The translations under genes and the position numbers were made by a program. A stretch of 64,000 nt of DNA. Source: a virus. Below are positions 16,771 through 40,173 of the stretch, piece by piece. Under the pieces are notes generated by a model, which was given only the letters and a program-made list of their open reading frames with translations, was not told where the DNA came from and did no database searches. The stretch's first letter is position 1. The number at the start of each line of letters is the position of its first letter. Location: IMG/VR virus record IMGVR_UViG_3300014158_000003, positions 53,320 to 117,319 of that record; one strand, written 5' to 3'.

Positions 16771-16772
16771 CC

Positions 16773-16842: not shown

Positions 16843-16843
16843 C

Positions 16844-16911
16844 CGGAGGATACCTGGCGGGAGCATGCGCCCTACAAGCGCGAGCGCGGGGTCCGATTCC
16901 CCGGCCTCCGA
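16844..16911 (+). tRNA. tRNA-Val(TAC), degenerate
   Basis: CGGAGG/CCTCCG acceptor, GCGC-CCTACAA-GCGC. Confidence 0.55.
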
Positions 16912-16912
16912 C

Positions 16913-16991
16913 CGGACGCGTGCCTAAGCCGGCGGTCCCGGCGCACGTCTTATGAGCGTGTGGCTCGAGGGTTCAACTCCTGCGCGTCCGA
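16913..16991 (+). tRNA. tRNA-Ile(TAT)-like
   Basis: CGGACGC/GCGTCCG acceptor, CACGT-CTTATGA-GCGTG, GTTCAACTC. Confidence 0.55.
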
Positions 16992-16997
16992 CTCAAT

Positions 16998-17069
16998 GCG
17001 AGGCATGGCTGCTGGTGCAGCCACCGGCTCGACACGCCGGCTAGGAGGGTTCGATCCCCTCGCCTCGCA
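16998..17069 (+). tRNA. tRNA-Val(GAC)
   Basis: GCGAGGC/GCCTCGC acceptor, CCGGC-TCGACAC-GCCGG. Confidence 0.7.
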
Positions 17070-17070
17070 C

Positions 17071-17143
17071 CCCGCCCAGAGGCCCGGTTGGCCTGCGATT
17101 GCTGATAACGATCGCGCGCTGCGTTCAACTCGCAGTGGGCGGA
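17071..17143 (+). tRNA. tRNA-Ile(GAT)
   Basis: CCGCCCA/TGGGCGG acceptor, GATTG-CTGATAA-CGATC. Confidence 0.7.
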
Positions 17144-17167
17144 CAACGTGCTAGATCGAACCGCGCG

Positions 17168-17689
17168 ATGGAACCGCAGACGCTCGTGCTCACCCCGCAC
17201 ATGACTCCCCACCGGATCGCCGGTTGGCAGGAAGCGATCGTGCTCGTCTACACGGACAAGGTCGACGTGCTCGAGGAGTACGAGGCGACGATCTCGAGCC
17301 CGTCGGTGACGTTGCAGGTGCCCGCGGTGCTGCGCCTGCGCAAGGAGATGTCGCTCTTCAAGAAGGGCACGAAGTACAGCCCAGCGAACGTCATGCTCCG
17401 TGACAAGCACACGTGCTGCTACTGCGGCCAGAAGAAGCGGCCGCGCGATCTCAACATCGACCACGTCGTCCCGCGCGCGCAGGGCGGCAAGACGACGTGG
17501 CTGAACTGCGTCTCCTCGTGCCCGAGCTGCAACCGCCGCAAGGGGGCGCGCACGCCGGCGCAGGCAGGACTGAAGATGCACTTCCAGCCGCACGTGCCCA
17601 GGCAGTTGCCGTTCGCGCCGCTGCTGCTCATCGCGAAGGTGCCCGACCTATGGGTCCCCTACCTGTCGGCGAGCGCGCAGACGGCGTAG
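17168..17689 (+). CDS. HNH endonuclease (McrA-like) within the tRNA array
   Basis: TLVL..P..I.GWQEAI..PAVLRL..NVMLRDKHTCCYCG..NIDHVVPRAQGG..WLNCVSSCPSCNRRKG. Confidence 0.92.
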   Translation: MEPQTLVLTPHMTPHRIAGWQEAIVLVYTDKVDVLEEYEATISSPSVTLQVPAVLRLRKEMSLFKKGTKYSPANVMLRDKHTCCYCGQKKRPRDLNIDHVVPRAQGGKTTWLNCVSSCPSCNRRKGARTPAQAGLKMHFQPHVPRQLPFAPLLLIAKVPDLWVPYLSASAQTA

Positions 17690-17700
17690 CAAAAAAGTTT

Positions 17701-17791
17701 GGAAGGTACCGCTGAATGGTCGGCAATCCGGTTCGAACCCGGAGGCGTGGTGTAACCCATCACGGGCGTTCGATTCGTCTACTTTCCGCCA
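17701..17791 (+). tRNA. tRNA-Ser(CGA), encoded CCA
   Basis: TCCGG-TTCGAAC-CCGGA, long variable arm, GCCA end. Confidence 0.85.
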
Positions 17792-17804
17792 ACGTGAAAG
17801 CACT

Positions 17805-17889
17805 GGAAGAGGAACCGCGCGGGGCGCGGGCCGGTTTGCTAAACCGCGCGGCGGCATGAGCCGCTCTGGGTCGGGACCAGTCTCTTCCT
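17805..17889 (+). tRNA. tRNA-Ser(GCT), degenerate T-arm
   Basis: GGAAGAG/CTCTTCC acceptor, loop TTGCTAA, long variable arm. Confidence 0.6.
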
Positions 17890-17900
17890 CCGTTGCGTCG

Positions 17901-17983
17901 TGCCTCGAGCGGGACTCGAACCCGCAAGCTCCGAAGAGCGGCGATTTTTAGGACCGCCTGGTCTACCGTTCCTCCACCGAGGC
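17901..17983 (-). tRNA. tRNA-Leu(TAA)
   Basis: Reverse complement GCCTCGG..GCGGT-CCTAAAA-ATCGC, long variable arm, GTTCGAGTC. Confidence 0.8.
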
Positions 17984-17988
17984 CCTCG

Positions 17989-18069
17989 TACTCCGGGCGC
18001 GAGTCGAACGCGCATGCCTTGCGGCACCCGATCTTGAATCGGGCGTGGATACCGTTTCACCACCGGAGC
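17989..18069 (-). tRNA. tRNA-Leu(CAA)
   Basis: Reverse complement CCCGA-TTCAAGA-TCGGG, long variable arm. Confidence 0.85.
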
Positions 18070-18079
18070 ATTCACTTCG

Positions 18080-18162
18080 TACGCGGGGAGGGAGTTGAAC
18101 CCTCACGCCCTCTCGGGCACGACCACCTCAAGGTCGCGTGACTGCCATTCCACCACCCGCGT
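18080..18162 (-). tRNA. tRNA-Leu(GAG)
   Basis: Reverse complement CGACC-TTGAGGT-GGTCG. Its 5' end coincides with the IS target duplication. Confidence 0.85.
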
Positions 18163-18235
18163 GGGTAGTGGGTCAGTTTGAGTTTCGCGTCATGACGCGC
18201 TTGCGTGACCGGTCAAGCATGGTCAAGCTCGCGGC

Positions 18236-18553
18236 ATGGCGATTCTACGTGAGCGTGTGGCGTGGTCGAAGCCGAGGGCTAGGCGTGGTCCGGACCTGAG
18301 CCCAGACGAACAGAAGGCGGTCAAGAAGGCTCTTGCGTTCCTCGCCAAGCGCCACGGCTCCCTCGTGAAGCTGTCCGCCGCGATGGGCCTGAAGCCAGAC
18401 GCGGTCGTCCATGCGGCCAGAGAGCGCGGGAGCGTTACGGCGGGCGTCGCGCTCCGGGCTGCTCGCGCTGCCGGAGTGCCTCTGGAAGACCTCCTAGCCG
18501 GCCGGTGGCCCGAGGCTGGCACTTGCCCTCTCTGCGGCCGGAAGGCAGGATGA
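18236..18553 (+). CDS. Xre-like HTH protein (IS passenger)
   Basis: SLVKLSAAMGLKPDAVVH helix-turn-helix and C-terminal CPLCG. Confidence 0.65.
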   Translation: MAILRERVAWSKPRARRGPDLSPDEQKAVKKALAFLAKRHGSLVKLSAAMGLKPDAVVHAARERGSVTAGVALRAARAAGVPLEDLLAGRWPEAGTCPLCGRKAG

Positions 18554-18557
18554 AGGC

Positions 18558-18824
18558 GTGCCTAAGCGGTCAAGCAAGAGCCCGAAACGCCCGACGGACG
18601 TGAACTCGCTGGCGGCGTCGATCGTCGCGGCGGCAACCGACGAGACGCCCCCGGAAGAGAAGGCCGAGCCGACACCCGAGGAACTGGCGCACGCGGCGGC
18701 CGTGGCCCTCGGAAGGCTCGGTGGATTGAAGGGCGGAAGAGCGCGAGCGGAGAGTCTGTCGAAGAAGAAACGTAGTGACATCGCCAAGAAAGCGGCGAAG
18801 GCGAGGTGGAGCGCAAAGCCGTGA
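18558..18824 (+). CDS. Small basic protein (GRLGGLKGG..RS.IAKKAAKARW type, IS-associated)
   Basis: KRPTDVNSLA..IV..AT and AAVALGRLGGLKGGRARAESLS motifs. Confidence 0.8.
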   Translation: MPKRSSKSPKRPTDVNSLAASIVAAATDETPPEEKAEPTPEELAHAAAVALGRLGGLKGGRARAESLSKKKRSDIAKKAAKARWSAKP

Positions 18825-18875
18825 CGCGTTCGCGATTGACGAGCCGGACCGTTGCGTGATCGCATGCATCGTCAA

Positions 18876-19853
18876 ATGCCTGAGGACGAAAAAAAGCCGC
18901 CGTACATCAAGCAGCCGGCCAAGGACGATCAGCGTCCATTTCAGCGCGTGCTGAGCGAGCACGATCTATTTGCTTCGCAGCGATTGACCCGGCGTGGCCT
19001 GCTTCAAAAAATCGAGGCCGAGACGACCGGTGAGAGGTCCGCCACCATCGGCTTCATTGGCCGCGGCGCGATCGATCCCAGAGACATCACGGCCTTTGGC
19101 GATGTCCTGATGTCGGTCGGTGATGTCGATGTCCTCAACCTGATCATCGATAGTCCTGGCGGCGACGGTTCTACGGCGGAGAAACTGATCGAACTGTGCC
19201 GCGCCTACTGCAAGACTTTCCGGGTAATGATCCCTAACCGCGCAAAGAGTGCGGGCACGATCATCGCGCTCGGCGCCGATGAGATCGTGATGGGGCACTG
19301 CTCCGAATTGGGTCCAATCGACGCGCAGGTGCCTGTGATCGTGGGCGAGATCCCTCGATACATCTCGGCACAGTCGTTTATCGACGCTCAGTTGGATCTA
19401 CAGGCTGAATTTGCAAAGCGCATCGCCGCGAATGGAAAGGCGGACGTGCGCGACATCCTGCAACAACTTGCCGCGCTCAACCTGCCGTTTATTGACCACT
19501 GCAAGAAACTCATGGGCTTCTCGCGTGACGTTGCAGAGAAGAATCTGGCCGCGCACATGTTTCGGGATGTTCAGCCCGATGCCGAGCGCAACCAAAAGGT
19601 TGCAAAGGTCATCAAGGGGCTCTCGCATCCAGAGAACTTTCAGGTGCACTCGCGAATGATCGACGGCAACACGGCCAAAACCAAGCTGGGGCTAAATGTG
19701 CGGCTTCTCGGCAAAGACGACGAACTGTGGGCCGCGATCTGGCAGTACTACATTCGCGCGGACGTTTTTCTCTCGGGCGCCCACGGCCCCGGGGCGTCTA
19801 AGCTGGTCGAATCACGGGTGGAGAGCCTACATCTAACGGCGGAACTGGAATGA
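18876..19853 (+). CDS. SDH_sah / ClpP-crotonase-fold serine protease (IS passenger)
   Basis: LIIDSPGG, AKSAGTIIALGADEIVMG..SELGPIDAQ, HSRMI. Lower GC. Start codon uncertain (18852-18876). Confidence 0.85.
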   Translation: MPEDEKKPPYIKQPAKDDQRPFQRVLSEHDLFASQRLTRRGLLQKIEAETTGERSATIGFIGRGAIDPRDITAFGDVLMSVGDVDVLNLIIDSPGGDGSTAEKLIELCRAYCKTFRVMIPNRAKSAGTIIALGADEIVMGHCSELGPIDAQVPVIVGEIPRYISAQSFIDAQLDLQAEFAKRIAANGKADVRDILQQLAALNLPFIDHCKKLMGFSRDVAEKNLAAHMFRDVQPDAERNQKVAKVIKGLSHPENFQVHSRMIDGNTAKTKLGLNVRLLGKDDELWAAIWQYYIRADVFLSGAHGPGASKLVESRVESLHLTAELE

Positions 19854-20092
19854 CTATTGCTACGCGAGAGGGGACCATGAACCGACCGACCGATAACCAG
19901 AATCCGGATGGCCACAGCTCCGAGGTCAGTCAGGCGCTGGAACTGTTCAACAGTACAGATGCAGCGCGGGACGCCGCTACAGCTCTGGAGGTGATGCGCT
20001 TGGCTGGTGCTAGCCGACGTGCGCGCACAGAACGCCGGTTCAGTCTGTCCATCAGTGGCGGGTATGTTCGATGCGAGGACGACGGCGCTTAA
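19850..20092 (+). CDS. Small hypothetical protein coupled to the protease gene
   Basis: ATGA overlap with the protease stop. Confidence 0.45.
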   Translation: MTIATREGTMNRPTDNQNPDGHSSEVSQALELFNSTDAARDAATALEVMRLAGASRRARTERRFSLSISGGYVRCEDDGA

Positions 20093-20169
20093 AGTCGCTG
20101 TTGACAATTTGTCGCTGTCGATGACCCTACAGGGGCAATGCAGTCACGATGACAGTCAAAGTGAACCGG

Positions 20170-20202
20170 ATGCTTGACTGAGCCTCAACGGTCAAGCATA
20201 CT
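20170..20202 (+). promoter_or_regulatory. Transposase promoter overlapped by a palindromic operator
   Basis: TTGACT-17 nt-CATACT inside ATGCTTGAC-N12-GTCAAGCAT. The ATG lies 7 nt after the -10 element. Confidence 0.65.
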
Positions 20203-20209
20203 GTCCAGT

Positions 20210-21082
20210 ATGAACACGCTGGACGCCGCCACCCGCACCCGCATCGTCTCGGCCCTGGTCGAGGGGAACTCGATCCGCGCGACGTGCCGCATGACCGGCG
20301 CGGCGAAGGGCACCGTCTTGAAGCTCCTGGCGGACCTCGGCGCCGCCTGCCGCGCGTACCACGACGCGAACGTGCGCGGCCTGCACTGCAAGCGGCTCCA
20401 GTGCGACGAGATCTGGTCCTTCTGCGGCGCCAAGGACAAGAATGTCCTGCCCGACGAGGAAGGCTTCGGGCGCGGCTCGATCTGGACGTGGACCGCGCTC
20501 GACGCGGACACGAAGCTGATCGCCGGCTACCACATCGGCACGCGCGACGCTGGCTGCGCCTACGAGTTCATGACCGACCTCGCGTCACGCATCGAGACGC
20601 GCGTGCAGCTCACGACCGACGGACACAAGGCGTACATCAACGCGGTCGCCGACGCGTTCGGGCCGTCGAATATCGACTACGCGATGCTCGTGAAGCTGTT
20701 TGGCGAGACGCCGGCCGGCGCAGGTCGCTACAGCCCGCCCGCGTGCATCGGGATCGAGATGCGCCCGATCATGGGCGAGCCGGACATGGAGCACGTGTCG
20801 ACCTCGTACGTCGAACGCCAGAACCTCACGATGCGGATGTCGATGCGCCGGTTCACGCGGCTCACGAACGCGTTCTCGAAGAAGTGCGAGAACCTCGCGC
20901 ACGCGGTCGCGCTCCACTTCATGCATTACAACTTCTGCCGCGTGCACCAGACGCTCCGCGTGACGCCGGCCATGGCCGCGGGGCTCACGGATCATGTGTG
21001 GGAGATCGGCGAATTGATCGCGCTCATGCCGAAGCCGGTCGCGAAGCCGTGGGGGAGCGTGAAGCGCGCGGCGGTCGCCTGA
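20210..21082 (+). CDS. IS1-family DDE transposase
   Basis: HTH (LVEGNSIRATCRMTG), QCDEIWSF, LTTDG, TSYVERQNLTMR..RRFTRLTNAFSKK, YNFCRVH..TPAMAAG. Confidence 0.93.
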   Translation: MNTLDAATRTRIVSALVEGNSIRATCRMTGAAKGTVLKLLADLGAACRAYHDANVRGLHCKRLQCDEIWSFCGAKDKNVLPDEEGFGRGSIWTWTALDADTKLIAGYHIGTRDAGCAYEFMTDLASRIETRVQLTTDGHKAYINAVADAFGPSNIDYAMLVKLFGETPAGAGRYSPPACIGIEMRPIMGEPDMEHVSTSYVERQNLTMRMSMRRFTRLTNAFSKKCENLAHAVALHFMHYNFCRVHQTLRVTPAMAAGLTDHVWEIGELIALMPKPVAKPWGSVKRAAVA

Positions 21083-21086
21083 TCGG

Positions 21087-21479
21087 TCAACGCTGCGGCA
21101 CCTTTGCCTTGAAGCCTCGCGGGGTGAATTGCGAACGGTGGAGCCCGATCCGCATCCTAGATAGGAGCGCGTCTGCAATGCACGTCTGTTTGCGGCCTGG
21201 TTGCAACGTATCGGTGTCCCCGGCCTCTACCTCTCGAAGGCCTCGGTAGAACACGTAGCTTTCGTGGGTGATGAACGGGTGCGCGTCCGGATCGCCGGGG
21301 CGAAGGATGCACGAGCGGTCCACGAACCTATCCACCGTCGTGACGTTCACGATCGTGGCGCACACCGCGAGCGAATAGTCGGGCGTGTAGACAGCCAGGA
21401 CGACCCACAGGTGATCGACGACCGCCGTCTTCGACGGGTTGAGCAGAAACGCATCCCCCGCCTCGACGGTTCCCCTCAC
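21087..21479 (-). CDS. Putative PemK/MazF-like toxin partner of the Panacea antitoxin
   Basis: GDAFL..HLWVVL..VNVTT..CIL..HPFITHESYV. GTGA overlap with the antitoxin gene. Confidence 0.5.
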   Translation of the reverse strand: MRGTVEAGDAFLLNPSKTAVVDHLWVVLAVYTPDYSLAVCATIVNVTTVDRFVDRSCILRPGDPDAHPFITHESYVFYRGLREVEAGDTDTLQPGRKQTCIADALLSRMRIGLHRSQFTPRGFKAKVPQR

Positions 21480-22051
21480 GACGAATGGATCAACCTATCG
21501 ACTGCTGCGAGATACTTTGCGCGCTTGGCGCGATCGCTGATTGCTTCGTCGTTCTCGCCGACCGCGCGGAGAATGTCAGCGGCCGGCAATGGTGCAACCT
21601 TCGCGGGCTTGGGGTGCTTCCACTCCGGAAGCCCGTGGACCACGTCGATCAGATGCGTGTATGAAACACGCTTATACTTCTTCGCGAGATCTGTCAGAAC
21701 GCCGACGTCGTAATCCGAAAGCTGATCGTCGCCCGGGTCCTCTACAAGCTCGACGTTGTAGCCTTGGGTGCGGATGCAGTGGTCCCAAAGACTGTCGGCG
21801 ACCTCGACCTCCCCCTTGATGCAGTTGTAGACCTCACTCAGAACAGGCCCGTTCGCCATGGACACGAACGTAGAGCCGGTGATCGGCTGACCGGTCTCGA
21901 TCAGCGATTGCCTGTCGGCGAGGTACAGCTCCTTCAGGATGGACGTGTAGTTCTCGGTACCACCAGCCTCGCGCAGGAGAACGGCAGCAGCTTGCACGGC
22001 TCGACGTTCGTCAAACCGGAACCTGAGTTCGCCCCCCGCTTCCAATAGCAT
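21476..22051 (-). CDS. Panacea (DUF4065/SocA-like) antitoxin
   Basis: ILKELYLADRQSLIETGQPITG..FVSMANGPV..LS..D..L..H..PEW. Confidence 0.85.
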   Translation of the reverse strand: MLLEAGGELRFRFDERRAVQAAAVLLREAGGTENYTSILKELYLADRQSLIETGQPITGSTFVSMANGPVLSEVYNCIKGEVEVADSLWDHCIRTQGYNVELVEDPGDDQLSDYDVGVLTDLAKKYKRVSYTHLIDVVHGLPEWKHPKPAKVAPLPAADILRAVGENDEAISDRAKRAKYLAAVDRLIHSS

Positions 22052-22192
22052 CGTCAACCACCATCTACCGATCCGCGCCTGCCCACGCGTTCAGGCTAAC
22101 GCTAACGTATGACATCTGCAAGCCTCAATGCTTGAGCGGTCACGCAACGCGCCGCGTCAGCCCAACTCAAACTGACCCACTACCCCCGCGTG

Positions 22193-22260
22193 TCCGGGCC
22201 GAGGGGATCGAACCCTCTTCGCCGGATTCAAAATCCGGCTCCCCACCATGGGTGGCCCGA
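22193..22260 (-). tRNA. tRNA-Gln(TTG), short D-arm
   Basis: Reverse complement CCGGA-TTTTGAA-TCCGG, GTTCGATCC. Confidence 0.75.
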
Positions 22261-22261
22261 G

Positions 22262-22344
22262 TGCGTTGGGAGGGAGTTGAACCCTCACGACCTTGCGGTC
22301 ACTGCGGTCTGAACGCAGCGCGGATACCGTTTCGCCACCAACGC
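22262..22344 (-). tRNA. tRNA-Leu(CAG)
   Basis: Reverse complement GCGTTGG/CCAACGC acceptor, CTGCG-TTCAGAC-CGCAG, long variable arm. Confidence 0.85.
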
Positions 22345-22810: not shown

Positions 22811-23055
22811 TCGTCGGCCTCCAGCTTGTCGAGTCGCGCGATCTGGTCGCACAGTCGCCTGCGCGCGCAGCGCCAGGAGCAGGCGTCGAAGTGCTCGCTC
22901 GCCGACGCGCGCTCTCCAGACCGACCGTCCGCAACCGACAGCATCACGATGAGGCCGTTCGTGTTGCGCGGGGAGGTCACCGCGATGGAGTTCCCGCAGA
23001 CCGCGCACGCAATCGGCTCGGCCTCGCGAGCGACGGGGGACCCCTTGCGCCTCAT
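22807..23055 (-). CDS. Small Zn-finger hypothetical protein
   Basis: CAVCG..ACSWRC, with 4-nt overlaps to both neighbours. Confidence 0.55.
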   Translation of the reverse strand: MRRKGSPVAREAEPIACAVCGNSIAVTSPRNTNGLIVMLSVADGRSGERASASEHFDACSWRCARRRLCDQIARLDKLEADE

Positions 23056-23462
23056 CGCGCCTTTGGGCGCCTCGCCAGCCCCTCGCGCACCCCCTGCGTC
23101 ACGAGCGTGAGCTCCTTCGGGCTCAGCGTGGCGCACGTCGCGATGAGCCTGGTGACCGTGCGCGCGCTCACGGCCGTCCCGGCGCGCTCCGGGTGGGGCG
23201 CCACCGGCGGCAGCTTGGGTAGCGGAGGCAGCTTGGTCTCGTCGATCTTGCCCGCGGCGTCGTGGGGCACGCTCACCTTGAGCGTGCCCTTCGCGATCCC
23301 GGCGCGCACGCCGGCCGTGACGGCCGCGAGCTCCGGGTCGTTGAGCGAGAGCGCCATCGCGACGCAGTGGGCGACGAGCGCGAGGTCGGGGTCCACGCGG
23401 GCGGTCTTCTTCTTCGCGCGGATCGCTTCCCGGAAGGCGGTGACGGCGGCGGATTCGGGCAT
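23052..23462 (-). CDS. Hypothetical protein downstream of the CRISPR array
   Basis: ATG 23462 (MPESAAVTAF), GC-rich codon usage. Confidence 0.6.
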   Translation of the reverse strand: MPESAAVTAFREAIRAKKKTARVDPDLALVAHCVAMALSLNDPELAAVTAGVRAGIAKGTLKVSVPHDAAGKIDETKLPPLPKLPPVAPHPERAGTAVSARTVTRLIATCATLSPKELTLVTQGVREGLARRPKAR

Positions 23463-23499
23463 GCCTGGGAGGGTAGCACCGTGCACAGCCGCCCGCAGT

Positions 23500-24993
23500 C
23501 GGCACTTGCCCGAGGCGCCGCGATGCCGTAGCCACACGGGAAAGGAAGAAATACTCCGACGCCTCTACCCTAGCCGCGATCTCCGAGGCGCCGCGGTGCC
23601 GCAACCATCTGCAGAGCATGAGTGCTGTTCCGGCACCGGAGATCGGGCCGCGATCTCCGAGGCGTCGCGGTGCCGTAGTCACACCAGCCTGTGACCATGG
23701 AGCAGTAGTCGGCGTAGTCGCGATCTTCGAGGCGCCGCGATGCCGCGATACCCGTCCGTCCTCGCGAGTTCAGTAGGTCGCGGTCTCACGAGGCTCCGCG
23801 ATGCCATCATCAACCATCCAGGCCGCCACGGTGCGAGCAGGTCGCGGTCTCAGAGGCGTCGCGATGCCATAGCCACGGCACGGGCGCATCGGTCGTCCGT
23901 GTGGTTGATCAGGTCGCGATCTCCGAGGCGCCGCGATGCCGTAGCCACGAGAGCGAGGTCGACCACTTCGACTCGTGGCTCCAAGTCGCGATCTCCGAGG
24001 CGCCGCGATGCCATAGCCACCCGATCGACGGGTACAAAACTCGCTCGTCCCACTTGGTCGCGATCTCCGAGGCGCCGCGATGCCGTAGCCACACGGGAAA
24101 GGAAGAAATCCTCCGACGCCTCTACCCTAGCCGCGATCTAAGAGGCGCCGCGGTGCGGCAGCCATCTGCAGATCACGAATCAACTCACTCCCGGTCGCGA
24201 TCTTATAGGCGCCGCGATGCCGTAACTACGGGCGCGCCTTGCAGGTCATGACCTGCATCATGCACCGAGCCGCGATCTCCGAGGCGCCGCGATGCCGTAG
24301 CCACTTCGCCGCGCTCGTCGAGACGACGCTCGGCCGGAGCGTGTCGCGATCTCCGAGGCGCCGCGATGCCGTAGCCACAGGATCTGCACGCGCGCGCCAC
24401 GACCCAGCGAAGTCGCGATCTCCGAGGCGCCCCCCGCGCACCCAAATAACCCGCACGCGCCCGTCATTCGTCGACTCTCCTCTTCGGTGGTGGTCTCTTC
24501 GGTAAGTTCTGCAGGACCGCCGGGTCGCGATCTCCGAGGCGCCGCGATGCCGTAGCCACTCGTCACCCATCGCATCAGCCACCTGATGCGCCGTGTCGCG
24601 ATCTCCGAGGCGCCGCGATGCCGTAGCCACCGGCATTGCGATTGAAGCACGCGACCGACTACACGGTGTCGCGATCTCCGAGGCGCCGCGATGCCGTAGC
24701 CACGAGAGCGAGGTCGACCACTTCGATTCGTGGCTCCAAGTCGCGATCTCCGAGGCGCCGCGATGCCGTAGCCACGTCGTCGGGGGCATCAGGATGGCCA
24801 GCGAGGACGCGTCGCGATCTCCGAGGCGCCGCGATGCCGTAGCCACCGGATCTGCGGCTGGCCCGGCGACTGTTCGCTCACCGGGTCGCGATCTCCGAGG
24901 CGCCGCGATGCCGTAGCCACGTCGGGATACGACGGTCGACGTTGTGGCGATCAGATTGTCGCGATCTCCGAGGCGCCGCGATGCCGTAGCCAC
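23500..24993 (-). CRISPR. CRISPR array, 21 repeats / 20 spacers. 36-nt repeat GTGGCTACGGCATCGCGGCGCCTCGGAGATCGCGAC (minus strand)
   Basis: Plus-strand repeats start at 23500, 23573, 23647, 23717, 23777, 23841, 23913, 23985, 24057, 24130, 24194, 24269, 24343, 24412 (only 20 nt), 24524, 24595, 24668, 24740, 24811, 24885, 24958. Spacers are mostly 33-39 nt. Repeats are perfect near the cas gene and degenerate distally. Confidence 0.97.
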
Positions 24994-25091
24994 AGGTGGC
25001 CGAAAAACGTTCCGATTTTCAAAGACCTGCGCGGCCGCCTGCGAGCGCCGCCCCGATCGGGTAGCCGACCCGGGCGCGACCTGCCAGTTGA

Positions 25092-27149
25092 CTACTCTGC
25101 CGCCCGGCCGAACCCCTCGACGCGCCTCGACTTCTTCGCCCCGCGAGCGCCCCCACCCACGTTCACGCCGCCCGAGGGCTCGCCCGAGTGCCGGTCGTAG
25201 AGATGCTTGGCCGCGTTGAGGTCCTGGTCGTAGACCTGCCCGCACGCGAAGCAGGTGACCGGGATCTGCGGCAGCGGGTCAGACGACTCGCCGCCGCAGC
25301 CGTGGTGCTCGACCGTGATCCGCTCGCTCGGCGCCCGGTGCACGTTCGCCTCGCCGAACGCCGCCTCGAGCGCGTCTACCAGCTCGCTCACGCACGCGAG
25401 CACGCGGTTGCTGTTGCCGCGCACCTCTTGCTCGGTGCGGGTGTCGGCCTCGGGGTCCGGCGTCTCGGCCGTCTCGGACTTGTTCCACTGCTCGATGACG
25501 ACGCGCTCGTAGCGGGCGGCCAAGTCGCGCGCGTAGCACCGGTAGCGGTCTCTCCTCGACCGGCGCAGGCGCAGGTCGTTGTTCCTGGCCCAGTTGACGA
25601 GGTGCCGGTCCTTGGCCCGCCACCAGTCGAGGTAGACCGCGAGCACCTGGTCCGCGCTCACGACCCCGCGCCCGGCGAGCCACGCCTTGATCTCGTCGAG
25701 CGGCCCGAACAGGTCCAGCTTCGGCGACCGCTCGAGTCGCCACGCCTTCCAGAGCGCGGGCACGTCGACCCCGCGCGCCTCGAGCCAATCTCTGCGCAGG
25801 TCCAGAGCCACCCGCGCGAGCCGACCGTGGCTGCGCCAGGCGTGCACCGTGTCGAGCGACCAGGCGGCGACCTGCTCGGGCGAGAACAGGCTGCGCTCGC
25901 CCCCCTTGAACCAGCCGGCCAGAGCGTCCCTGACCGCGAGGAAGTGCTCGTCCGCGTACGACAAGAGGCGATCGGCGAGGTCCGACCCCTCGCGGAAGGA
26001 TCGCGGCAGCACCAGCCGGTCCTCCGCGCGCGAGGCGCTGCCCGACCACGGCGTCGCGACCCGCAGGTCACCGTTCTTGAGCGCGCGCCAGCCGAGGTTC
26101 AGCGCGATGGTCCCGCGCGCCCCCGCGCTCTGCGCCCGCGCCCGGTCGACCGAGTCGCAGGTCAGCTGCAGCTCGTAGTGCCACACGAGGCCGACCCGCC
26201 GCGCGACGACGTACGCCCAGCGCACCCGCGCCTCCGGGGCCATGTCCCGGTGCCACACGACCGGCAGGTGCAGCCACGTCGCCTGGTCGCCGCGCCCGGA
26301 CAGGTGCAGGTGCACGACCGCGTACCGGGTGCCGTTCGCGCGCGCGGTCATGTCCGCGGGGAACTCGACGCGGACCTGACCGACCGCGGCGCCGACGACG
26401 TCGTCGGCCGAGAGCCCGCCGCCCCGGACCTGCAGCCCCACGCGCTCGCACTCGAGCCGCGAGAACGGCGGGTCCCCGGCGCACTCAGCGAACGACTTCT
26501 CCGCGGCGGCCTCCACGGCGAGGTACGTCCCGACGGCGCACCCGCACTCGGCGCGAGCGCGCTTGGCGAGCGCCTCGTGCTCCATCTGCGACCGGGTCTT
26601 TGCCTTCCACGGCTCGCCGACGGCCGGGTCGGCGAGCGCACGCTCGCGCACCGCTGCCGTGATCGCCGCGAGCACGTGCGGGCCGATTGGCCCCGGGTCG
26701 GCGCCGCGCGCGAACCGGGCGACCGCGCACGCGAAGCCCACGGCGGCCGTCACGGACTGCTTCGCCTCGCGGTACTTCTGATCGGCGGCGCCGAACACGT
26801 CGGCAGTCGTCCGGTCGCGCGCCTCGGCGTACGCCTTCCAGGCGCCCGACCGCGCTGCACTCAACCGGCGCACCTCGGCGGCGACCGGGTGCCGCGCGCG
26901 CTCCGCGCGCGGCACGCCCGACAAGAGCCGGCGCCCCTCGACGACCGCGCGGTCGGCCGCCGCGTAGGCGGCGTGGAGGTGCGCGAGCTCGGGCGACAGG
27001 GAGTTTCGGAGGTCGCGGTACGCCGCCCGGCGCGAGCGCTCGATCTCCACGAGGCGGTTTCGGTAGCGGTGCGCGGCGCGCACCTCGCGGTCGATGATCT
27101 GGCGCGCCTCGAGCGGCAGCGGACCGATCCCCCACTTGTAGACCAGCAT
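25092..27149 (-). CDS. cas12m: Cas12m-like (type V-M / V-U1) CRISPR effector, RuvC-I Asp replaced by Asn
   Basis: 685 aa, ending about 100 bp from the array. Motifs LVYKWG..AHRYRNRLVEIE, WLHLPVVWHR..P, TIALNLGWR, WRSHGR, W..KDRHL, VVIEQ, HHGCG..CFACGQVYDQDLNAA match the Cas12m pattern as I recall it. Confidence 0.85.
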   Translation of the reverse strand: MLVYKWGIGPLPLEARQIIDREVRAAHRYRNRLVEIERSRRAAYRDLRNSLSPELAHLHAAYAAADRAVVEGRRLLSGVPRAERARHPVAAEVRRLSAARSGAWKAYAEARDRTTADVFGAADQKYREAKQSVTAAVGFACAVARFARGADPGPIGPHVLAAITAAVRERALADPAVGEPWKAKTRSQMEHEALAKRARAECGCAVGTYLAVEAAAEKSFAECAGDPPFSRLECERVGLQVRGGGLSADDVVGAAVGQVRVEFPADMTARANGTRYAVVHLHLSGRGDQATWLHLPVVWHRDMAPEARVRWAYVVARRVGLVWHYELQLTCDSVDRARAQSAGARGTIALNLGWRALKNGDLRVATPWSGSASRAEDRLVLPRSFREGSDLADRLLSYADEHFLAVRDALAGWFKGGERSLFSPEQVAAWSLDTVHAWRSHGRLARVALDLRRDWLEARGVDVPALWKAWRLERSPKLDLFGPLDEIKAWLAGRGVVSADQVLAVYLDWWRAKDRHLVNWARNNDLRLRRSRRDRYRCYARDLAARYERVVIEQWNKSETAETPDPEADTRTEQEVRGNSNRVLACVSELVDALEAAFGEANVHRAPSERITVEHHGCGGESSDPLPQIPVTCFACGQVYDQDLNAAKHLYDRHSGEPSGGVNVGGGARGAKKSRRVEGFGRAAE

Positions 27150-27170
27150 TCTAGCGTTCTCCTCTCGAGG

Positions 27171-27341
27171 TCACTTGATGAGGTCCTCTCGCTTCAACTT
27201 CCTGAGCGCGCTGCGCAGGCGTTCCTTGGAGTGGTCGCTCAAGAGCACGGAGATCCCGTGCTCGAGAGCGCGCTTGACGGTGCGCGGGTCGAGCTGGGCC
27301 TCCAGCGCGATCCGCATGAGTGTGGGTCGGTCGACTTCCAT
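27171..27341 (-). CDS. 56-aa HTH protein immediately upstream of the Cas12m-like gene (not in ORF track)
   Basis: MEVDRPTLMRIALEAQLDPRTVKRALEHGISVLLSDHSKERLRSALRKLKREDLIK, preceded by GGAAGG RBS. Confidence 0.7.
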   Translation of the reverse strand: MEVDRPTLMRIALEAQLDPRTVKRALEHGISVLLSDHSKERLRSALRKLKREDLIK

Positions 27342-27377
27342 CTTTGCGCCTTCCTGGTCGGGGTCCCGCCCCGCAGT

Positions 27378-27785
27378 CTACTCGTCGAGCTCGTCGATCT
27401 GGCGCCGCAGCTCCTTCTCCGAGAGGTTGGAGAGTTTCCCGTCCTGCTTCTCGGCGAGGATCGCGAGCAGCTTCTCCTTCCTGACCTTCCTGTCCGCCCG
27501 CCTCTTCGCGTCCTCCTCCTCGGCGAGCCTCGCGTCGATGACGCACTTGACGATCTCCAGCGCGGTCTTGCGCCGGTCGTGCTCCGGCGTCCGAGCGGTC
27601 TCTACGAAGCTCTCCTCGGCGAGGTCCTTCCACGCCTTGTTGGCGGCCTTCGCGACGGCGTTGAGGTTGAAGTCGTCTTTCGACCGCAGGGGGACGTCCC
27701 AGAGCTGCTCGGTGGAGAGTTCCCCCCTGACGGACTGGAACCGGAGCTTGTTGCGGGTGGCGTACGCGAAGATGTCGGTGACCAT
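27378..27785 (-). CDS. Conserved phage coiled-coil hypothetical protein
   Basis: IFAYATRNKLRF.S.RGELSTEQLWDVPL..SFV..LL.ILAEKQD, AGGAG RBS. Confidence 0.8.
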   Translation of the reverse strand: MVTDIFAYATRNKLRFQSVRGELSTEQLWDVPLRSKDDFNLNAVAKAANKAWKDLAEESFVETARTPEHDRRKTALEIVKCVIDARLAEEEDAKRRADRKVRKEKLLAILAEKQDGKLSNLSEKELRRQIDELDE

Positions 27786-27805
27786 GGTCTCACTCCTCTG
27801 CCGGC

Positions 27806-29875
27806 TCACGCGCCGACCTTGATGTTGAACACTCGCTGCTTTCGGCCCTGGTGGACCCGGACGATGAACGACTCGCGCTTGGTCGACGAGAAGCCGAGCC
27901 CCGAGAGCTGCCCCTCGGTGGGGGCGCACTTGGTCTTGTCGCCGATGACCTCGAAGACTTTGCGGTGCGGCTCGAGGCGCGGGTGCAAGAACTCGTTATA
28001 GAAGCCGCGCGTCGGCTCGTCGTTCTTGCACCCGTCGATGAGGAAGAACGTGTGCTTGTTGCCGACCGCGCTATCGCCCCAGTAGTTCGGACTCAACATG
28101 ACCGCGCTGACCTTCACGTACTGCTCGGTCGTGAGACCCCACTTCTCCTGCGAGATGTTGGCGGCGGTGATGCCCGGGTCGCCGACCTCGACCTTCTCGA
28201 CGACGCCACCGCGCACGTGGAGGGTCACGACGGCGACGTCCTGTTGACCGCGAACGCCCTTGTTGTACGAGAAGTGCGAGAGCTTGCCGCCACTTTCTAC
28301 TTCGACGACGAACCCCGGGTTGCTCGTCTCGCGCTGCGTGAAGTTGTTGACGACGACGCGGTACGCGCCGTCCGGAGGCGGCGCCGACCACACGACGTTC
28401 TCGACGGCCTCGCGGGTCGTGCCGTGGCCCGCGTTCATGTCGACGTCGAGCGTGCCGCCCGTCCACCCGCGCTTGTTGCGGAAGTAGATGTGGTCCTCGA
28501 ACGCGTGGCGCCCGCGCCCCGGCGGCTCGTGCACGTGCAGGTCGAGGTCGTCGAAGTTGAACCAGGAGAGCGACACGCGCAGCGCCGCGCCCTCCACCTT
28601 GCCGCCGGCCTTCTTCACGCGCTCCTTGATGCTGTCCGCGACGTTGCCGCCGTAGGACCACGCGAAGTCGTTGTCCCACCGGAAGAGCTGCTTCGGCTCC
28701 GGGTGCACGGGAGCCGTCAGTGACACCAGGTTGCCGACGTGCTCGCTCTTGAAAAACAGCTCAAGGCTCGTCGTCTCGGGCAGCACCCTCGCCACGAAAT
28801 CGTCGATCCCGATCGGCTCCGCGCGCTCCGCGTCGTGCTCTGCGCTCCGGCTCACCGCGGTCGCGTGCTGCATGAGCACATCCCCGATGCCGCCCTTCAT
28901 CAGCGGCTTGACGGTCCCGTCGACCCACTTCACGTCGTTGACGGACACGTCGCTGATGACGGCGAACCGCCGCTCGAGGGCGGACTCGAGGCCGAGCACC
29001 TCGATCGTCTCCATCGCCTTCTTCACCATGCCGGGCGTGATGATGGCGGTCGTGCGCTTGTAGTTCTGCGGCGCGACCTTCGTCTCGAAGGCGCGCACCG
29101 CTTGCTCGACGTCCTGGCCACCGGACAGGTCCTGCACGAGCGTGCCGATCACGGTGTTGCGGAAGCGCGCAGCGGGGTGACCCGCGTTCGCCCACGCGAA
29201 GAGGGAGCGCCCGCGACCCTCGCTCCTCGAGAGGTACGCGCGCTGCGCGGCCATGAAATTCACGATCGCGAACTTGTGCTCCTCGCCGCGATAGAGCGCG
29301 CCAGCCTCCACGAGCGAGAGCGCGGTCTCCACCGCGCTCGGGGTCAGCTCGACCAGCCCGCGCTCGAAGACCTGCACCGTCGTGCGGTAGTCGCCGCGCA
29401 CCTGGTCGGGCGTCTCCGACCGCAATTTTCTCGGGATCTCCCCCGTGTAGAGGTGCTGCCACGTGAGAGCGCGGCCGGTCTCCCTGTCGAGCGACCGCGA
29501 CAGGGCCGCGCCGAAGCTCACCTCCCTCTCGCCCACGCGAAAGAGGTCGCAGACGCTCGCGGCGCGCACGACGTCCTGCAGATACGTCGCCACCACCTGG
29601 TAGACGCCCATCCCCTCCACGGCGGCCCGGTCCCAGACCGTGTTCAGCACGCCGTCGTCGCCGATGGTCACGACAGCGCCGGCCCGGCGAATGAAGTGCC
29701 GGCAGCAGCGGCAGTCGTGCTCGGTCGACTTCTTGAAGATCGAGTCGGCGCCGGCGGGAAACGCCGCGATGTACTCCTCGTACAGCGAGCCGACGTCCGC
29801 GACGAAGACGTCCTGGGACTTCGTCAGCTGCTGGAATGACTCCGCGACCGTCCTAGCGAACACTGAGAAATCCAT
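27806..29875 (-). CDS. Conserved large phage protein with YfaP/DUF2135-like domain
   Basis: HDCRCCRHFI, KVAPQNYKR, LRVSLSWFNFDDLDLHVHEP..GGTLDVDMNAG..AVEN, SPNYW..GNKH.FF. Confidence 0.8.
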   Translation of the reverse strand: MDFSVFARTVAESFQQLTKSQDVFVADVGSLYEEYIAAFPAGADSIFKKSTEHDCRCCRHFIRRAGAVVTIGDDGVLNTVWDRAAVEGMGVYQVVATYLQDVVRAASVCDLFRVGEREVSFGAALSRSLDRETGRALTWQHLYTGEIPRKLRSETPDQVRGDYRTTVQVFERGLVELTPSAVETALSLVEAGALYRGEEHKFAIVNFMAAQRAYLSRSEGRGRSLFAWANAGHPAARFRNTVIGTLVQDLSGGQDVEQAVRAFETKVAPQNYKRTTAIITPGMVKKAMETIEVLGLESALERRFAVISDVSVNDVKWVDGTVKPLMKGGIGDVLMQHATAVSRSAEHDAERAEPIGIDDFVARVLPETTSLELFFKSEHVGNLVSLTAPVHPEPKQLFRWDNDFAWSYGGNVADSIKERVKKAGGKVEGAALRVSLSWFNFDDLDLHVHEPPGRGRHAFEDHIYFRNKRGWTGGTLDVDMNAGHGTTREAVENVVWSAPPPDGAYRVVVNNFTQRETSNPGFVVEVESGGKLSHFSYNKGVRGQQDVAVVTLHVRGGVVEKVEVGDPGITAANISQEKWGLTTEQYVKVSAVMLSPNYWGDSAVGNKHTFFLIDGCKNDEPTRGFYNEFLHPRLEPHRKVFEVIGDKTKCAPTEGQLSGLGFSSTKRESFIVRVHQGRKQRVFNIKVGA

Positions 29876-29954
29876 CGCCGCCCTCACTCAGGTCAAAATG
29901 ACGCCCCGCACTCGGCGGACCCGCCGAGTGCCACGACTCTGTCGCTCCCAAGAA

Positions 29955-37707: not shown

Positions 37708-38190
37708 TCATCCCGACCTCCTGCGCGTCCCGGCCACGATCCGAGCGACCGACGTCCGGTGCAAGCCGAGCCGCCGCCCGATCGCCGTGAACGACTCGCC
37801 CGCCTGCGCGGACTCGCGGATGGCAGCCACCACCGAGTCGCCCGTCGCCTTCCGCGGTCCACCGCGTGGGTGCGTGCCATGCACGCGCTTGTCGGCCTCG
37901 TTCTCCTCGGGCAGCGCCCAGCGCAGGTTGCCCGCGCGATTGTTGCCGCGGTCCCTGTCCGGGAAGTGCGCGCCGTGGTGGCGCGTCGAGGGTCGCGGGG
38001 CCACGAACGCCTCGAGCACGAGCGCGTGGACTGGCCGCCAGACCCGCCGGCCGTCGGGCGACACCAGCCGGACCCTCAGGTAGCCGCCGCGCCACTGCGG
38101 CAGGAGCGCGAGGCGCCCGCGCCGGACGTGGCCGCCGCGGGAGACGCGGTAGCCTGGGAAACCCGCGATCGGGCGCCAGATGGGTCTCAC
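37708..38190 (-). CDS. NUMOD4-HNH homing endonuclease with C-terminal HTH
   Basis: WRPIAGFPGYRVSRGGHV..GYLRVRL..VHALVLEAF..H..NN.AGNLRW. Confidence 0.85.
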   Translation of the reverse strand: MRPIWRPIAGFPGYRVSRGGHVRRGRLALLPQWRGGYLRVRLVSPDGRRVWRPVHALVLEAFVAPRPSTRHHGAHFPDRDRGNNRAGNLRWALPEENEADKRVHGTHPRGGPRKATGDSVVAAIRESAQAGESFTAIGRRLGLHRTSVARIVAGTRRRSG

Positions 38191-38384
38191 CTGTCGCCCC
38201 GACGTCGCACCCTCATCGCGTCCCCGAAGGTGGTCCGCAGCGTCGGTTTGCCCGCCGCGCGCAGCGCATCCTCCTCGCGCTTGCGTCGCTGCATGCGCTG
38301 GAGATCGGTCTCCTCCACGGGTGACCTGTCTGGATCGCAGCCGGAACACCCCGCGCACCCAAATAACCCGCACGCGCCCGTCAT
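38187..38384 (-). CDS. Small Cys-rich hypothetical protein
   Basis: CGLFGCAGCSGC, with 4-nt overlaps on both sides. Confidence 0.5.
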   Translation of the reverse strand: MTGACGLFGCAGCSGCDPDRSPVEETDLQRMQRRKREEDALRAAGKPTLRTTFGDAMRVRRRGDR

Positions 38385-38725
38385 TCGTCGACTCTCCTCT
38401 TCGGTGGTGGTCTCTTCGGTAAGTTCTGCAGGACCGCCGGCGTCGGCACCTCACGACCGCGCGGCGCGAGTCCGCGGCTGACGAGGTTCGCGTAGGCGGG
38501 GACGACGCGCCCGTGGACGCTGGTGACCCACCCGCGCTGCTTGTCCGAGAGCTGGTGGAACGGCCTACCGGCGTCCGTCCCGTCCAGGATCCCGCCGTAC
38601 GCCTGCAGGTCGAAGCGCATGCTGGCAAACGCCTCCGTCTCGCGGTCAGTGAGCTCGTCGGCGTGCTTGCCTAGCAGTTCGCCGAGGAGGTTGAGGTCGG
38701 AGGTGCGCTTCGAGTCACTGATCAT
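38381..38725 (-). CDS. Hypothetical protein (paralog of 61192-61473). Its 3' end is copied in the CRISPR array
   Basis: E..AF..M..LSDKQR.W motif, ATGA overlaps. Confidence 0.7.
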   Translation of the reverse strand: MISDSKRTSDLNLLGELLGKHADELTDRETEAFASMRFDLQAYGGILDGTDAGRPFHQLSDKQRGWVTSVHGRVVPAYANLVSRGLAPRGREVPTPAVLQNLPKRPPPKRRVDE

Positions 38726-39982: not shown

Positions 39983-40173
39983 TCGTGAACCATAGCGCCT
40001 GTACGTTGTACGTCAAGCGACCTATGCCCGGGTGAGCAGGTGCAGCGCCGTCAATAGACCCGCCGTCTGGACCGGGGTCAGGCGCCCGGCGTCGATCTCC
40101 ACGAGCAGGAACAACAACTCGTCGTCCCGCATCGGTTCGCGACGCATCAGGCGGTTGAGGATAGCGGCGACCG

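Follow-up and report, generated by a model that had tools for sequence, protein, structure and literature searches.

The CRISPR array of an environmental phage (virus record IMGVR_UViG_3300014158_000003, 117,319 bp, rated 100% complete) carries in spacer position an exact 92-bp copy of the phage's own DNA, and this self-copy is a genuine unit of the array, not an assembly chimera. We give about an even chance to the reading that the unit is an aberrant capture of self-DNA that was tolerated and whose guide is most likely inert or weak, that is, a fossil and not a designed switch. Self-matching spacers are normally lethal and are rare. All coordinates refer to the window, the 64,000-nt stretch analyzed here (record positions 53,320 to 117,319), and are collected in Table 1.

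Table 1. Coordinates of the array, its self-copy, the matching operon region and the effector gene in the 64,000-nt window.
Feature	Coordinates	Strand	Remarks
CRISPR array	23500..24993	-	19 repeat matches and a 20-nt stub
Next, older spacer, without a complete handle	24379..24411	-	downstream of the truncated repeat
Truncated repeat	24412..24431	-	crRNA-sense positions 17-36 only; 16 nt missing
92-bp self-DNA copy in spacer position	24432..24523	-	exact match to 38349-38440; junction contigs in X1, X2 and X5
Intact repeat, would give the handle to the self-matching guide	24524..24559	-	36 nt, 0 mismatches to consensus
Leader, effector stop codon to first repeat	24994..25091	-	position only
Cas12m-type effector gene	25092..27149	-	685 aa; GC3 0.95; RuvC-I residue is Asn351
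HNH endonuclease gene, directly downstream of the target	37708..38181	-	phrog_59, E 4.5e-24; weak HNH_3 and HTH Pfam matches
65-aa Cys-rich ORF	38187..38384	-	GC3 0.80; ATGA overlap with the 114-aa gene
Source and potential target	38349..38440	-	114-aa gene, codons 96-114 and stop; 65-aa gene, codons 1-12
114-aa gene, unassigned function	38381..38725	-	GC3 0.86; widespread phage family
PAM-position triplet ACG (Thr95 codon of the 114-aa gene)	38441..38443	-	Thr in 34/40 aligned homologs; Leu/Phe in 0
Promoter-like site, the region's only one, upstream of higB	39989..40016	-	consensus match only

Anatomy of the self-copy

The segments at 24432-24523 and 38349-38440 are identical at 92/92 bases, and the identity extends no further at either side. 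Across the full 117,319-bp record the 92-mer occurs twice on the plus strand and never on the minus strand, bearing out the exact copy described in an earlier reading of the sequence alone. No further self-match of the array was found at E ≤ 1e-3 (blastn-short against the whole record), and the first 36 nt of the other spacers have no match in the record at up to 8 mismatches, save for two spacer pairs duplicated within the array.

The array lies 98 bp downstream of the effector gene and is composite, with internal duplications; its repeats are perfect toward the leader and degenerate at the far end. We found no sigma-70-like site within the leader, and nothing resembling a promoter or terminator inside the array or next to it. 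In the minus sense the repeat folds into a 3′-proximal hairpin. Published mature Cas12m crRNAs retain a long handle from the repeat; in the 56-nt crRNA of PMC10442227 the handle has 36 nt and the guide 20 nt. In crRNA orientation the self-copy starts, as had been claimed, immediately after an intact repeat that is free of mismatches to the consensus, and the crRNA predicted from the minus strand of this segment opens with CCGGCGGUCCUGCAG.

The two ends of the unit differ. The junction is exact with respect to the repeat end on the leader side only; the other falls inside a repeat, between positions 16 and 17, and leaves what in plus-strand terms are the first 20 nt of the repeat. Microhomology is zero at both junctions. 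Repeat start-to-start spacing at the self-copy is 112, versus 64-75 for intact units, and the other spacers measure 28-39 nt (the sole 88-nt interval contains a degenerate repeat), so that the unit departs from a canonical spacer both in length, which is outside the range of the array, and in its partial downstream repeat (20/36 nt). Folding the insert end and the 20-nt repeat stub as a hybrid did not restore the handle hairpin. As the adjoining older spacer has no complete handle, it is probably disabled by the truncated repeat. The sequence-only reading had the insert take the place of one spacer and of 16 nt from the repeat that follows; the 16 nt are indeed absent, but replacement is an interpretation only, as the same structure is given by a pure 92-bp insertion that duplicates the final 20 nt of the repeat and loses nothing.

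Both junctions recur in independent assemblies

Spanning of the junctions had been suggested as a check, and when it was run on separate per-run assemblies both junctions were recovered in three of the four (X1, X2 and X5), representing at least two studies; the fourth run, X8, has no cover over 23976-24999. In X1 and X2 the junctions are on separate contigs (24352-24461 and 24494-24549), and the loose ends at 24523 and 24432 continue into operon context. Depths of the junction contigs were 24.5 and 19.3 in X1 (flanking contigs 24 and 29.7; 92-nt unitig 41.8) and 36.8 and 47.2 in X2 (flanking contigs 41.6 and 48.9; 92-nt unitig 70.6), the unitig being at about twice the junction and flank depth in both runs. 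A single 296-nt contig of X5, a 2023 freshwater run from a different study, spans 24342-24559 uninterrupted and joins 23479 via 21 other letters, indicating a different array variant. Most or all genomes of two wetland runs carry the self-copy unit. The idea of an assembly chimera or sequencing artifact, offered earlier as an alternative and suggested by the record being a metagenome assembly in which the 92-mer is repeated, is refuted and has next to no probability left, as junction contigs with flank-like depths are present in three of four runs and one contig from another study spans the unit.

A Cas12m-type effector without adaptation genes

The assignment of the effector to Cas12m was confirmed by matches to characterized family members. 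It matches PDB entry 23vw in phmmer at E 9e-33, and a profile built from 46 relatives matches 23vw (1.8e-124), 8hhl (Cas12m2, 2.4e-66), 8pm4 (2.4e-66) and 23vu (5e-63), each in three stretches corresponding to the N-terminal, middle and RuvC/zinc-finger parts. At RuvC-I the effector reads ALNLGWR and 23vw reads AIDLGWR, so that Asn351 faces an Asp; of the 46 aligned sequences, 26 have N in this column, 15 have D and 5 have H, and the alignments give the effector a triad of the N-E-D type. The Cas12m variants D-E-D, H-D-D and N-D-D do not cut (PMC11013384). Kinship to Cas12m and the Asn at RuvC-I make it plausible that the effector is non-cutting and hence self-tolerant, as the earlier reading held.

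We found no Cas1 (PF01867) or Cas2 (PF09827) match across the 117,319-bp record with searches in which the positive controls matched; adaptation genes are typically absent from V-U1/V-M loci (PMC11013384). In collections that may lack records near-identical to the window, the exact repeat has no match among viral contigs and genome contigs, and the effector none in viral contigs. In metagenome contigs the effector finds one locus, at 24% identity, and in genome contigs its sole match covers 62 C-terminal residues, in a Plantactinospora genome.

The potential target site and its PAM position

Inside the target, an ATGA stop/start overlap couples the 114-aa and 65-aa genes translationally, and the GC3 of both ORFs is of the coding type. 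The 114-aa protein has 82 homologs at E ≤ 0.001 and no Pfam, NCBIfam or PHROG match; the protospacer is the most conserved part of this family, with the motif ...TPAVLQNLPK.... The target region gave no megablast match in phages or plasmids. It lies about 1.55 kb downstream of the lone promoter-like site, which, judged by its sequence, would drive HigB, HigA, a Doc-like fragment, the 114-aa and 65-aa genes and HNH, and it is upstream of HNH. This HigBA/Doc/HNH operon looks accessory and non-essential. The crRNA and both genes have minus-strand sense, so pairing of the guide would be with the plus strand, which is the template strand; the coordinates thus agree with the pairing proposed earlier.

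On the non-target (minus) strand the 5′ flank of the target is CCGACG, and the observation that it ends in GACG and not in TTN holds. Published Cas12m PAMs are TTN (Cas12m2 and GoCas12m), YTN, YTTS and TTV (PMC10442227; PMC11013384; bioRxiv 10.64898/2026.09.14.751636), and binding by Cas12m depends on the PAM (PMC11013384). Among the motifs stated in the available text of these sources, every one compared needs a T at −2 and ACG fits none, so that by analogy the ACG flank is likely to be incompatible with the effector. The residues that read TT in Cas12m2/GoCas12m (Trp152, Asn156 and Gln197) align to Val206, Leu210 and Arg242 in a profile alignment that is moderately confident there; as the TT-reading residues are not conserved in the effector, a different PAM may be read.

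The array had no match in distant-mode searches of INPHARED phages and PLSDB plasmids. The first 30 nt of the spacers were not found at up to 6 mismatches in two related virus records, G001 and G002, and the array gave only chance-level matches in 10 further related virus records (best E 0.0255). A 22-nt pattern of the duplicated spacer has 0 matches in IMG/VR. A 25-nt match (96%) between the G002 array and G001 was not taken as a protospacer, as it includes 3 nt of repeat and is at the PAM-distal end.

Proposed origin by tolerated self-capture

The anatomy of the unit, with one junction at a repeat boundary, one within a repeat and no microhomology, fits the aberrant, over-long or recombinational capture named in the sequence-only reading. 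Under the self-capture that we weigh at about even, the two strand-transfer cuts of an integrase-type insertion would lie 20 bp and not 36 bp apart, so that the fragment would enter with a partial duplication of the repeat and no loss. Equally to be expected would be a normal self-derived spacer that anchors a template switch, which would copy 56 more operon bases and then rejoin in the next repeat. Since the phage has neither Cas1 nor Cas2, any integrase would act in trans, supplied by the host. In type I-E adaptation, rulers set the size of the repeat, and their misreading shortens or lengthens repeats (PMC5039180).

The crRNA expected from the unit carries a full handle and would match the template strand with its first ~18-20 nt, around 38421-38440; the spacer next to the unit should lose its handle. 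Given an ACG flank against the T at −2 of published PAMs, and a family that binds without cutting, this guide is by analogy likely to be inert or weak and tolerated. The self-match should also be cheap, as its target is in an accessory toxin-antitoxin/HNH region.

Several observations weigh on the other side. The 92-bp insert is far beyond the 28-39 nt of the spacers in this array, the trans-acting integrase is an assumption, and we found no published in vivo integration of a fragment as long as 92 bp, which counts against self-capture. Against an inert guide, the unit has been kept in two array architectures and in most or all genomes of two runs, as selection would likewise bring about.

Alternative explanations

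The sequence-only reading had suggested that the guide serves the phage as a regulatory roadblock, with Cas12m stopping transcription or replication at the 114-aa/65-aa junction and lowering the 65-aa gene, HNH and genes downstream. The handle is intact and the match perfect, the target is past the only promoter-like site and ahead of HNH, and the unit has persisted through two variants of the array and in most or all genomes of two runs, in keeping with a use. The Cas12m family stops transcription through binding (PMC11013384, PMC10442227), and by analogy the present effector may block transcription by binding DNA. The PAM-reading residues, unlike those of TTN-reading orthologs, make a non-T PAM conceivable. 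We nevertheless consider a self-directed guide unlikely, and the regulatory claim is not supported, as ACG matches no published Cas12m PAM compared. The unit also looks like an accident (oversized, with a broken repeat and the next spacer disabled), does not sit next to the leader and lacks a conserved special repeat, and two relatives offer no backing: G001 lacks Cas12m, and the G002 array showed no self-match. The most specific form of this idea, that a rebuilt PAM pocket (Arg242 for Gln197) takes ACG, so that the effector, seated on the template strand of the HigBA/Doc/HNH operon, throttles the phage's own homing endonuclease and neighboring genes and also hits co-infecting relatives, seems to us decidedly doubtful.

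Plain illegitimate recombination or end-joining in replicating phage DNA, with no adaptation machinery involved and a boundary junction that is coincidental, is given a similarly low probability. The zero microhomology and atypical length, the other rearrangements and internal duplications of the array, and the lack of Cas1 and Cas2 on the phage would all suit such an event. It leaves to chance, however, a base-exact boundary junction, which we estimate at about 1 in 36 to 1 in 72 in a unit of ~72 bp, as well as the orientation of the insert, which places the guide right behind a complete handle.

It is highly unlikely that the guide is aimed at close competitor phages that have a usable PAM, with the carrier shielded by its own. 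Virus-borne arrays directed against relatives are documented (PMC6858448), the protospacer falls in the most conserved stretch of a widespread phage protein, and a spacer of the G002 array matches an IS1-like transposase gene of the present phage beside TTC. One relative (L002, record G001) has TTG as its PAM triplet, but it is mismatched at guide positions 3, 4, 9 and 12, and both relatives with a homologous gene have seed mismatches. Because 34 of the 40 aligned homologs have a Thr codon (ACN) at the PAM position and none has Leu or Phe, most kin share the PAM status of the carrier. No viral contig of the IMG/VR collection searched, which may lack near-identical records, contains the opening 24 nt of the guide exactly, which speaks against such use, and identity to the carrier over 92 nt points to self as the source.

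Comparison with known systems

Natural self-regulatory guides (type IV-A self-targeting, scaRNA, CreA-like) combine complementarity to their own DNA with a usable PAM and measurable repression. Here the complementarity is exact (92/92) and the PAM is unlike the published Cas12m ones. Guo et al. are said to have described in 2022 self-targeting type IV-A CRISPR interference in Pseudomonas oleovorans, with a normal-sized spacer, a usable PAM and measured repression. That system is reportedly nuclease-free, borne on a mobile element and equipped with a spacer against the DNA of its own cell, which it represses and does not cleave, traits in which the present system would resemble it; the present one differs in that its unit is oversized, has a PAM outside known motifs and is known from sequence alone.

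The closest likeness is to type V-M Cas12m (MmCas12m2, 8hhl/8hio; GoCas12m, 8pm4; and 23vw), with which the locus shares a compact, homologous effector whose RuvC-I residue is degenerate, a 36-nt repeat that folds into a 3′ hairpin, an array directly downstream and the absence of adaptation genes (Cas1/Cas2). By analogy, DNA binding without cutting and tolerance of self-matches are expected as well. Unlike the solved Cas12m proteins (about 577-614 aa), the present effector has 685 aa, is encoded on a 117-kb phage, has an N-E-D-type triad and does not conserve the TT-reading residues. The available parts of PMC10442227 and PMC11013384 on type V-M systems mention no counterpart to the 92-bp self-copy and truncated repeat.

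Phage-borne Cas12m with an array is also found in myxophage MV-1, which lacks cas1, cas2 and cas4 (bioRxiv 10.64898/2026.09.14.751636). In the available text of that preprint, MV-1 Cas12m differs from the present one in its intact D-E-D triad and has no confident protospacer and no reported self-match. In another phage Cas12m array (L099, 30% identity) we found no self-match outside the array except a weak 32-nt match (E 0.0017). Virus-borne mini-CRISPR arrays carry spacers from, and against, very close relatives (Medvedeva et al. 2019, PMC6858448); they are described there as having no cas genes and as matching a rival and not the carrier, unlike the present match, which is exact to the carrier. 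The truncated repeat recalls the mis-sized repeats of type I-E (Goren et al. 2016, PMC5039180), where two molecular rulers within the repeat fix the second strand-transfer site and their misreading gives a duplicate repeat of the wrong length. The errors described in that source involve one or a few bases, engineered repeats and normal spacers, in contrast to 20/36 nt and a 92-bp insert in a natural phage array of another type.

Implications for Cas12m arrays on mobile elements

We found no published report of self-matching spacers in Cas12m arrays; the available texts of PMC11013384, PMC10442227 and the 2026 PmCas12m preprint do not use the phrase, nor do the first two use the term "self-target". 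A binding-only effector on a phage lifts the penalty on self-matches, and its array may therefore keep mis-captures that cutting systems purge. The 92-bp unit is an unusually clear record of such a mis-capture, with one exact and one internal junction and a 20-nt partial repeat, and bears on how spacers are gained and reshuffled in adaptation-less V-M arrays on mobile elements. If self-regulation were true, selection would account for the unit having been kept in two array architectures, in different habitats and years. If the guide is active, the unit would offer a natural example of viral genes regulated by the virus's own CRISPR protein.

Self-matching unit and array architecture

The virus record comprises 117,319 bp (69% G+C, completeness rating 100%), with the window as its final 64 kb. 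Positions 24432-24523, inside the CRISPR array, match 38349-38440 in the phage's own operon at 92 of 92 bases, in agreement with the sequence-only reading; the identity ends immediately on either side, and the 92-mer occurs exactly twice in the whole record. An exact 92-nt repeat within 117 kb is far beyond chance. When the entire array was compared with the record by blastn-short, no self-match appeared besides this copy, and the first 36 nt of the other spacers (≤8 mismatches) matched nothing in the record except two spacer pairs duplicated within the array.

The array (23500-24993) has a 36-nt repeat, GTCGCGATCTCCGAGGCGCCGCGATGCCGTAGCCAC on the plus strand, whose copies are perfect near 24993 and decay toward 23500. 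The gene for the 685-aa effector (25092-27149, minus strand) lies immediately upstream of the array in the minus sense. Folding in that sense places a hairpin next to the spacer, with the repeat ending in GAC. The arrangement recurs in L099, another phage-borne relative: its array, too, is downstream of the gene, and its repeat ends in a hairpin and GAC. The minus strand is therefore the crRNA strand, as had been assumed, and the copy begins, as claimed, directly after an intact repeat at a base-exact junction. The remaining spacers are 28-39 nt long, and a lone 88-nt interval holds a degenerate repeat.

The array is composite, with degenerate, terminal-looking repeats at 24130-24229 and internal duplications (23510-23621 and 24067-24178, 94% identity; 23913-24020 and 24668-24775, 98%), so that two spacers are present twice, with one base different within each pair.

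Features of the source operon and of the self-matching unit in the array
Feature	Position	Strand	Detail
Promoter-like site	40016-39989	-	upstream of HigB-like gene
HigB-like toxin	39704-39982	-	phrog_3066, 3.5e-29
HigA-like antitoxin	39378-39692	-	6.7e-28
Doc-like fragment (truncated toxin ORF)	38722-38961	-	79 aa; 1.9e-10
114-aa gene	38381-38725	-	function unknown
65-aa Cys-rich ORF	38187-38384	-	ATGA overlap with 114-aa gene
Free-standing HNH endonuclease	about 37708-38181	-	phrog_59, 4.5e-24
Intact repeat	24559-24524	-	0 mismatches to consensus
92-nt self-copy	24523-24432	-	directly after intact repeat in crRNA sense
Repeat stub	24431-24412	-	exactly repeat positions 17-36
33-nt spacer	24411-24379	-	after stub in crRNA sense

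The junctions in public sequencing runs

The listing of public runs that contain the region 23000-27500 has 20 entries, drawn from 17 studies and covering wetland (2017), lake water (2020) and freshwater (2023); separately assembled contigs from four runs (X1, X2, X5, X8) were placed on 23400-25300. In X1 and X2 (wetland, 2017), one of which is possibly the source sample of the record, a 110-nt contig (24352-24461) joins the older spacer and the stub to 30 nt of the copy, and a 56-nt contig (24494-24549) joins part of the copy to the intact repeat. As single, indicative figures per contig, the depths of these junction contigs (24.5 and 19.3 in X1; 36.8 and 47.2 in X2) are close to the values for the long contigs on either side (24 and 29.7; 41.6 and 48.9), and the 92-nt unitig has about twice the depth (41.8 and 70.6). 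Loose ends on both sides of this unitig continue into operon sequence, so the sample contains the array context and the operon context together.

In X5 (freshwater, 2023, a separate study), one 296-nt contig spans 24342-24559 unbroken with one letter different; on the left, 21 other letters link it to 23479, giving an array variant without 23480-24341. A second X5 contig is a further variant, in which 23537 is joined to 24809 through a different, unseen 34-nt spacer (region 23424-24838). With at least two other architectures in X5, the array is undergoing turnover in nature even though the phage has neither Cas1 nor Cas2. The X8 contigs give no cover over 23976-24999 and are uninformative for the junctions. 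The sequence-only reading had named reads across both junctions as a check and an assembly chimera as a real alternative. On the per-run contigs both junctions are present in three of the four runs (X1, X2 and X5) and at least two studies, and one X5 contig crosses the whole unit; an assembly artefact is rejected.

Identical copies of the 114-aa and Cas12m proteins (P0001 and P0083) are each found on 5 contigs, the longest of 148,905 bp, longer than this record, so fuller or differently joined assemblies of the phage may exist.

The effector

The effector had no match in Pfam or NCBIfam. Its phmmer match was PDB 23vw, "CRISPR-associated DNA-binding protein Cas12m" (E 9e-33), and an exhaustive search found 2,542 relatives at E ≤ 0.001. 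A profile from 46 full-length relatives matched 23vw (1.8e-124), Cas12m2 (8hhl, 2.4e-66), 8pm4 (2.4e-66) and 23vu (5e-63), with far weaker matches to TnpB and Cas12f. At the RuvC-I position, Asn351 stands where 23vw has Asp, and the column across the 46 sequences reads N 26, D 15, H 5; Cas12m variants with D-E-D, H-D-D and N-D-D are reported to bind dsDNA, and none cut it (Bigelyte et al., PMC11013384). The 117,319-bp record holds no Cas1 or Cas2, which likens this locus to V-U1-type loci, described as being without acquisition genes (PMC11013384).

GC3 is 0.95 in the Cas12m gene and 0.94 in the adjoining 693-aa ORF (25092-29887), while the targeted operon is at about 0.8; the two regions differ in codon-position composition and possibly in history. 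L099 is a low-GC 131-kb IMG/VR contig on which (2334-5615) a full-length relative of this effector (30% identity) is followed by an array of 16 repeats; no clear self-match was found in that array.

Target and flanking sequence

The 92 bp comprise codons 96-114 and the stop of the 114-aa gene, then codons 1-12 of the 65-aa ORF. Since the copy is a direct repeat of its source and array and operon are both transcribed leftward, the crRNA is mRNA-sense and would pair with the template strand, as previously proposed. Within the accessory island (37708-39982), the HNH reading frame extends far upstream across the two small genes. Of the 82 homologues of the 114-aa protein at E ≤ 0.001, 40 were aligned (the first 36 listed plus P0038, P0043, P0050 and P0058); 3 of the 40 continue into a Cys-rich tail (...CGR.DEGCYAFVNGDC.C.CC...), whereas in this phage a Cys-rich peptide is encoded by the separate, overlapping 65-aa ORF (38187-38725 for both genes). 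The two genes may have arisen from a single ancestral gene by splitting or frame-shifting. Elsewhere in the window, 28 tRNA genes form two convergent clusters (14735-22344); the minus strand carries all four Leu tRNAs and Gln(ttg).

The PAM-position triplet (38441-38443) is ACG, the Thr95 codon of the 114-aa gene, and the flank is GACG with the fourth base, unlike TTN, as had been noted. Reported PAMs are 5'-TTN for Cas12m2 and GoCas12m (PMC10442227, PMC11013384), 5'-YTN, YTTS and TTV for three further orthologues (2026 PmCas12m preprint), and "T- and C-rich" motifs for six variants (PMC11013384); ACG fits none of TTN, YTN, YTTS and TTV. Binding is described as PAM-dependent, with the heteroduplex read over ~17-18 bp (PMC11013384, PMC10442227), and PAM-proximal mismatches as abolishing activity (2026 PmCas12m preprint). 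The TT-reading residues Trp152, Asn156 and Gln197 (Cas12m2/GoCas12m) align, in a stretch of moderate confidence, to Val206, Leu210 and Arg242 here, so a different PAM is conceivable for this effector. No protospacers were found for the other spacers in INPHARED, PLSDB or related virus records including G001 and G002, or for the duplicated spacer in IMG/VR.

An indirect pointer to PAM use comes from the related record G002, which has a Cas12m-like gene of 695 aa and an array built on a different repeat. One of its spacers (46484-46519 of that record) matches window 20855-20884 with 3 mismatches in 30 and a 5' flank of TTC; the site (20855-20890, plus strand) lies within an IS1-like transposase ORF (20174-21082, plus strand; DDE_Tnp_IS1, E 1.6e-06). 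The match hints that a sister Cas12m-like array, using a T-rich PAM, targets other elements. The G002 array (45701-47898) contains two forms of the repeat and a number of long intervals, and a 25-nt stretch of it, which lies at the PAM-distal end of a unit and includes 3 nt of repeat, matches G001 17254-17278 (24/25, E 5.6e-05).

Origin and consequences

On the leader side the junction is base-exact; the other falls between repeat positions 16 and 17, and neither has microhomology. In one model, insertion with strand-transfer cuts 20 bp apart rather than 36 bp would duplicate repeat positions 17-36 and lose nothing; a parallel is type I-E, where the second integration site is described as ruler-guided and ruler failure as yielding mis-sized repeats (PMC5039180). 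In the other, an ordinary self-derived spacer would anchor a template switch or gene conversion that copies 56 extra operon bases, with homology-free rejoining in the next repeat. Both models fit the unit's structure equally well, and both need adaptation machinery at some stage, in trans. A crRNA from the unit would carry a complete handle and a guide that matches the phage itself, and the next spacer would lose its handle because the stub with the end of the insert does not refold the hairpin.

That the guide directs the effector to the phage's own operon as an active roadblock seems unlikely. An accident without adaptation machinery is improbable, as the exact junction would then be a chance event at odds between about 1 in 36 and 1 in 72. 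A guide aimed at related phages sharing the conserved gene end would exploit the best-conserved stretch of the 40 aligned homologues, which the protospacer covers, but 34 of these have Thr at the PAM codon (Glu 4, Pro 1, gap 1; Leu or Phe in none), so most kin share the carrier's PAM status, and G001, which has TTG at the triplet, is mismatched at guide positions 3, 4, 9 and 12; with no IMG/VR contig holding the first 24 nt of the guide, this reading is weak.

A literature search found no report of self-matching spacers in Cas12m arrays, and reports of phage-borne Cas12m as such are only just appearing. The 92-bp unit is a genuine and unusual feature, of sufficient age to be common to two array architectures. 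Its most likely reading, to which we give about an even chance, is that a binding-only system has tolerated the scar of a self-capture event.
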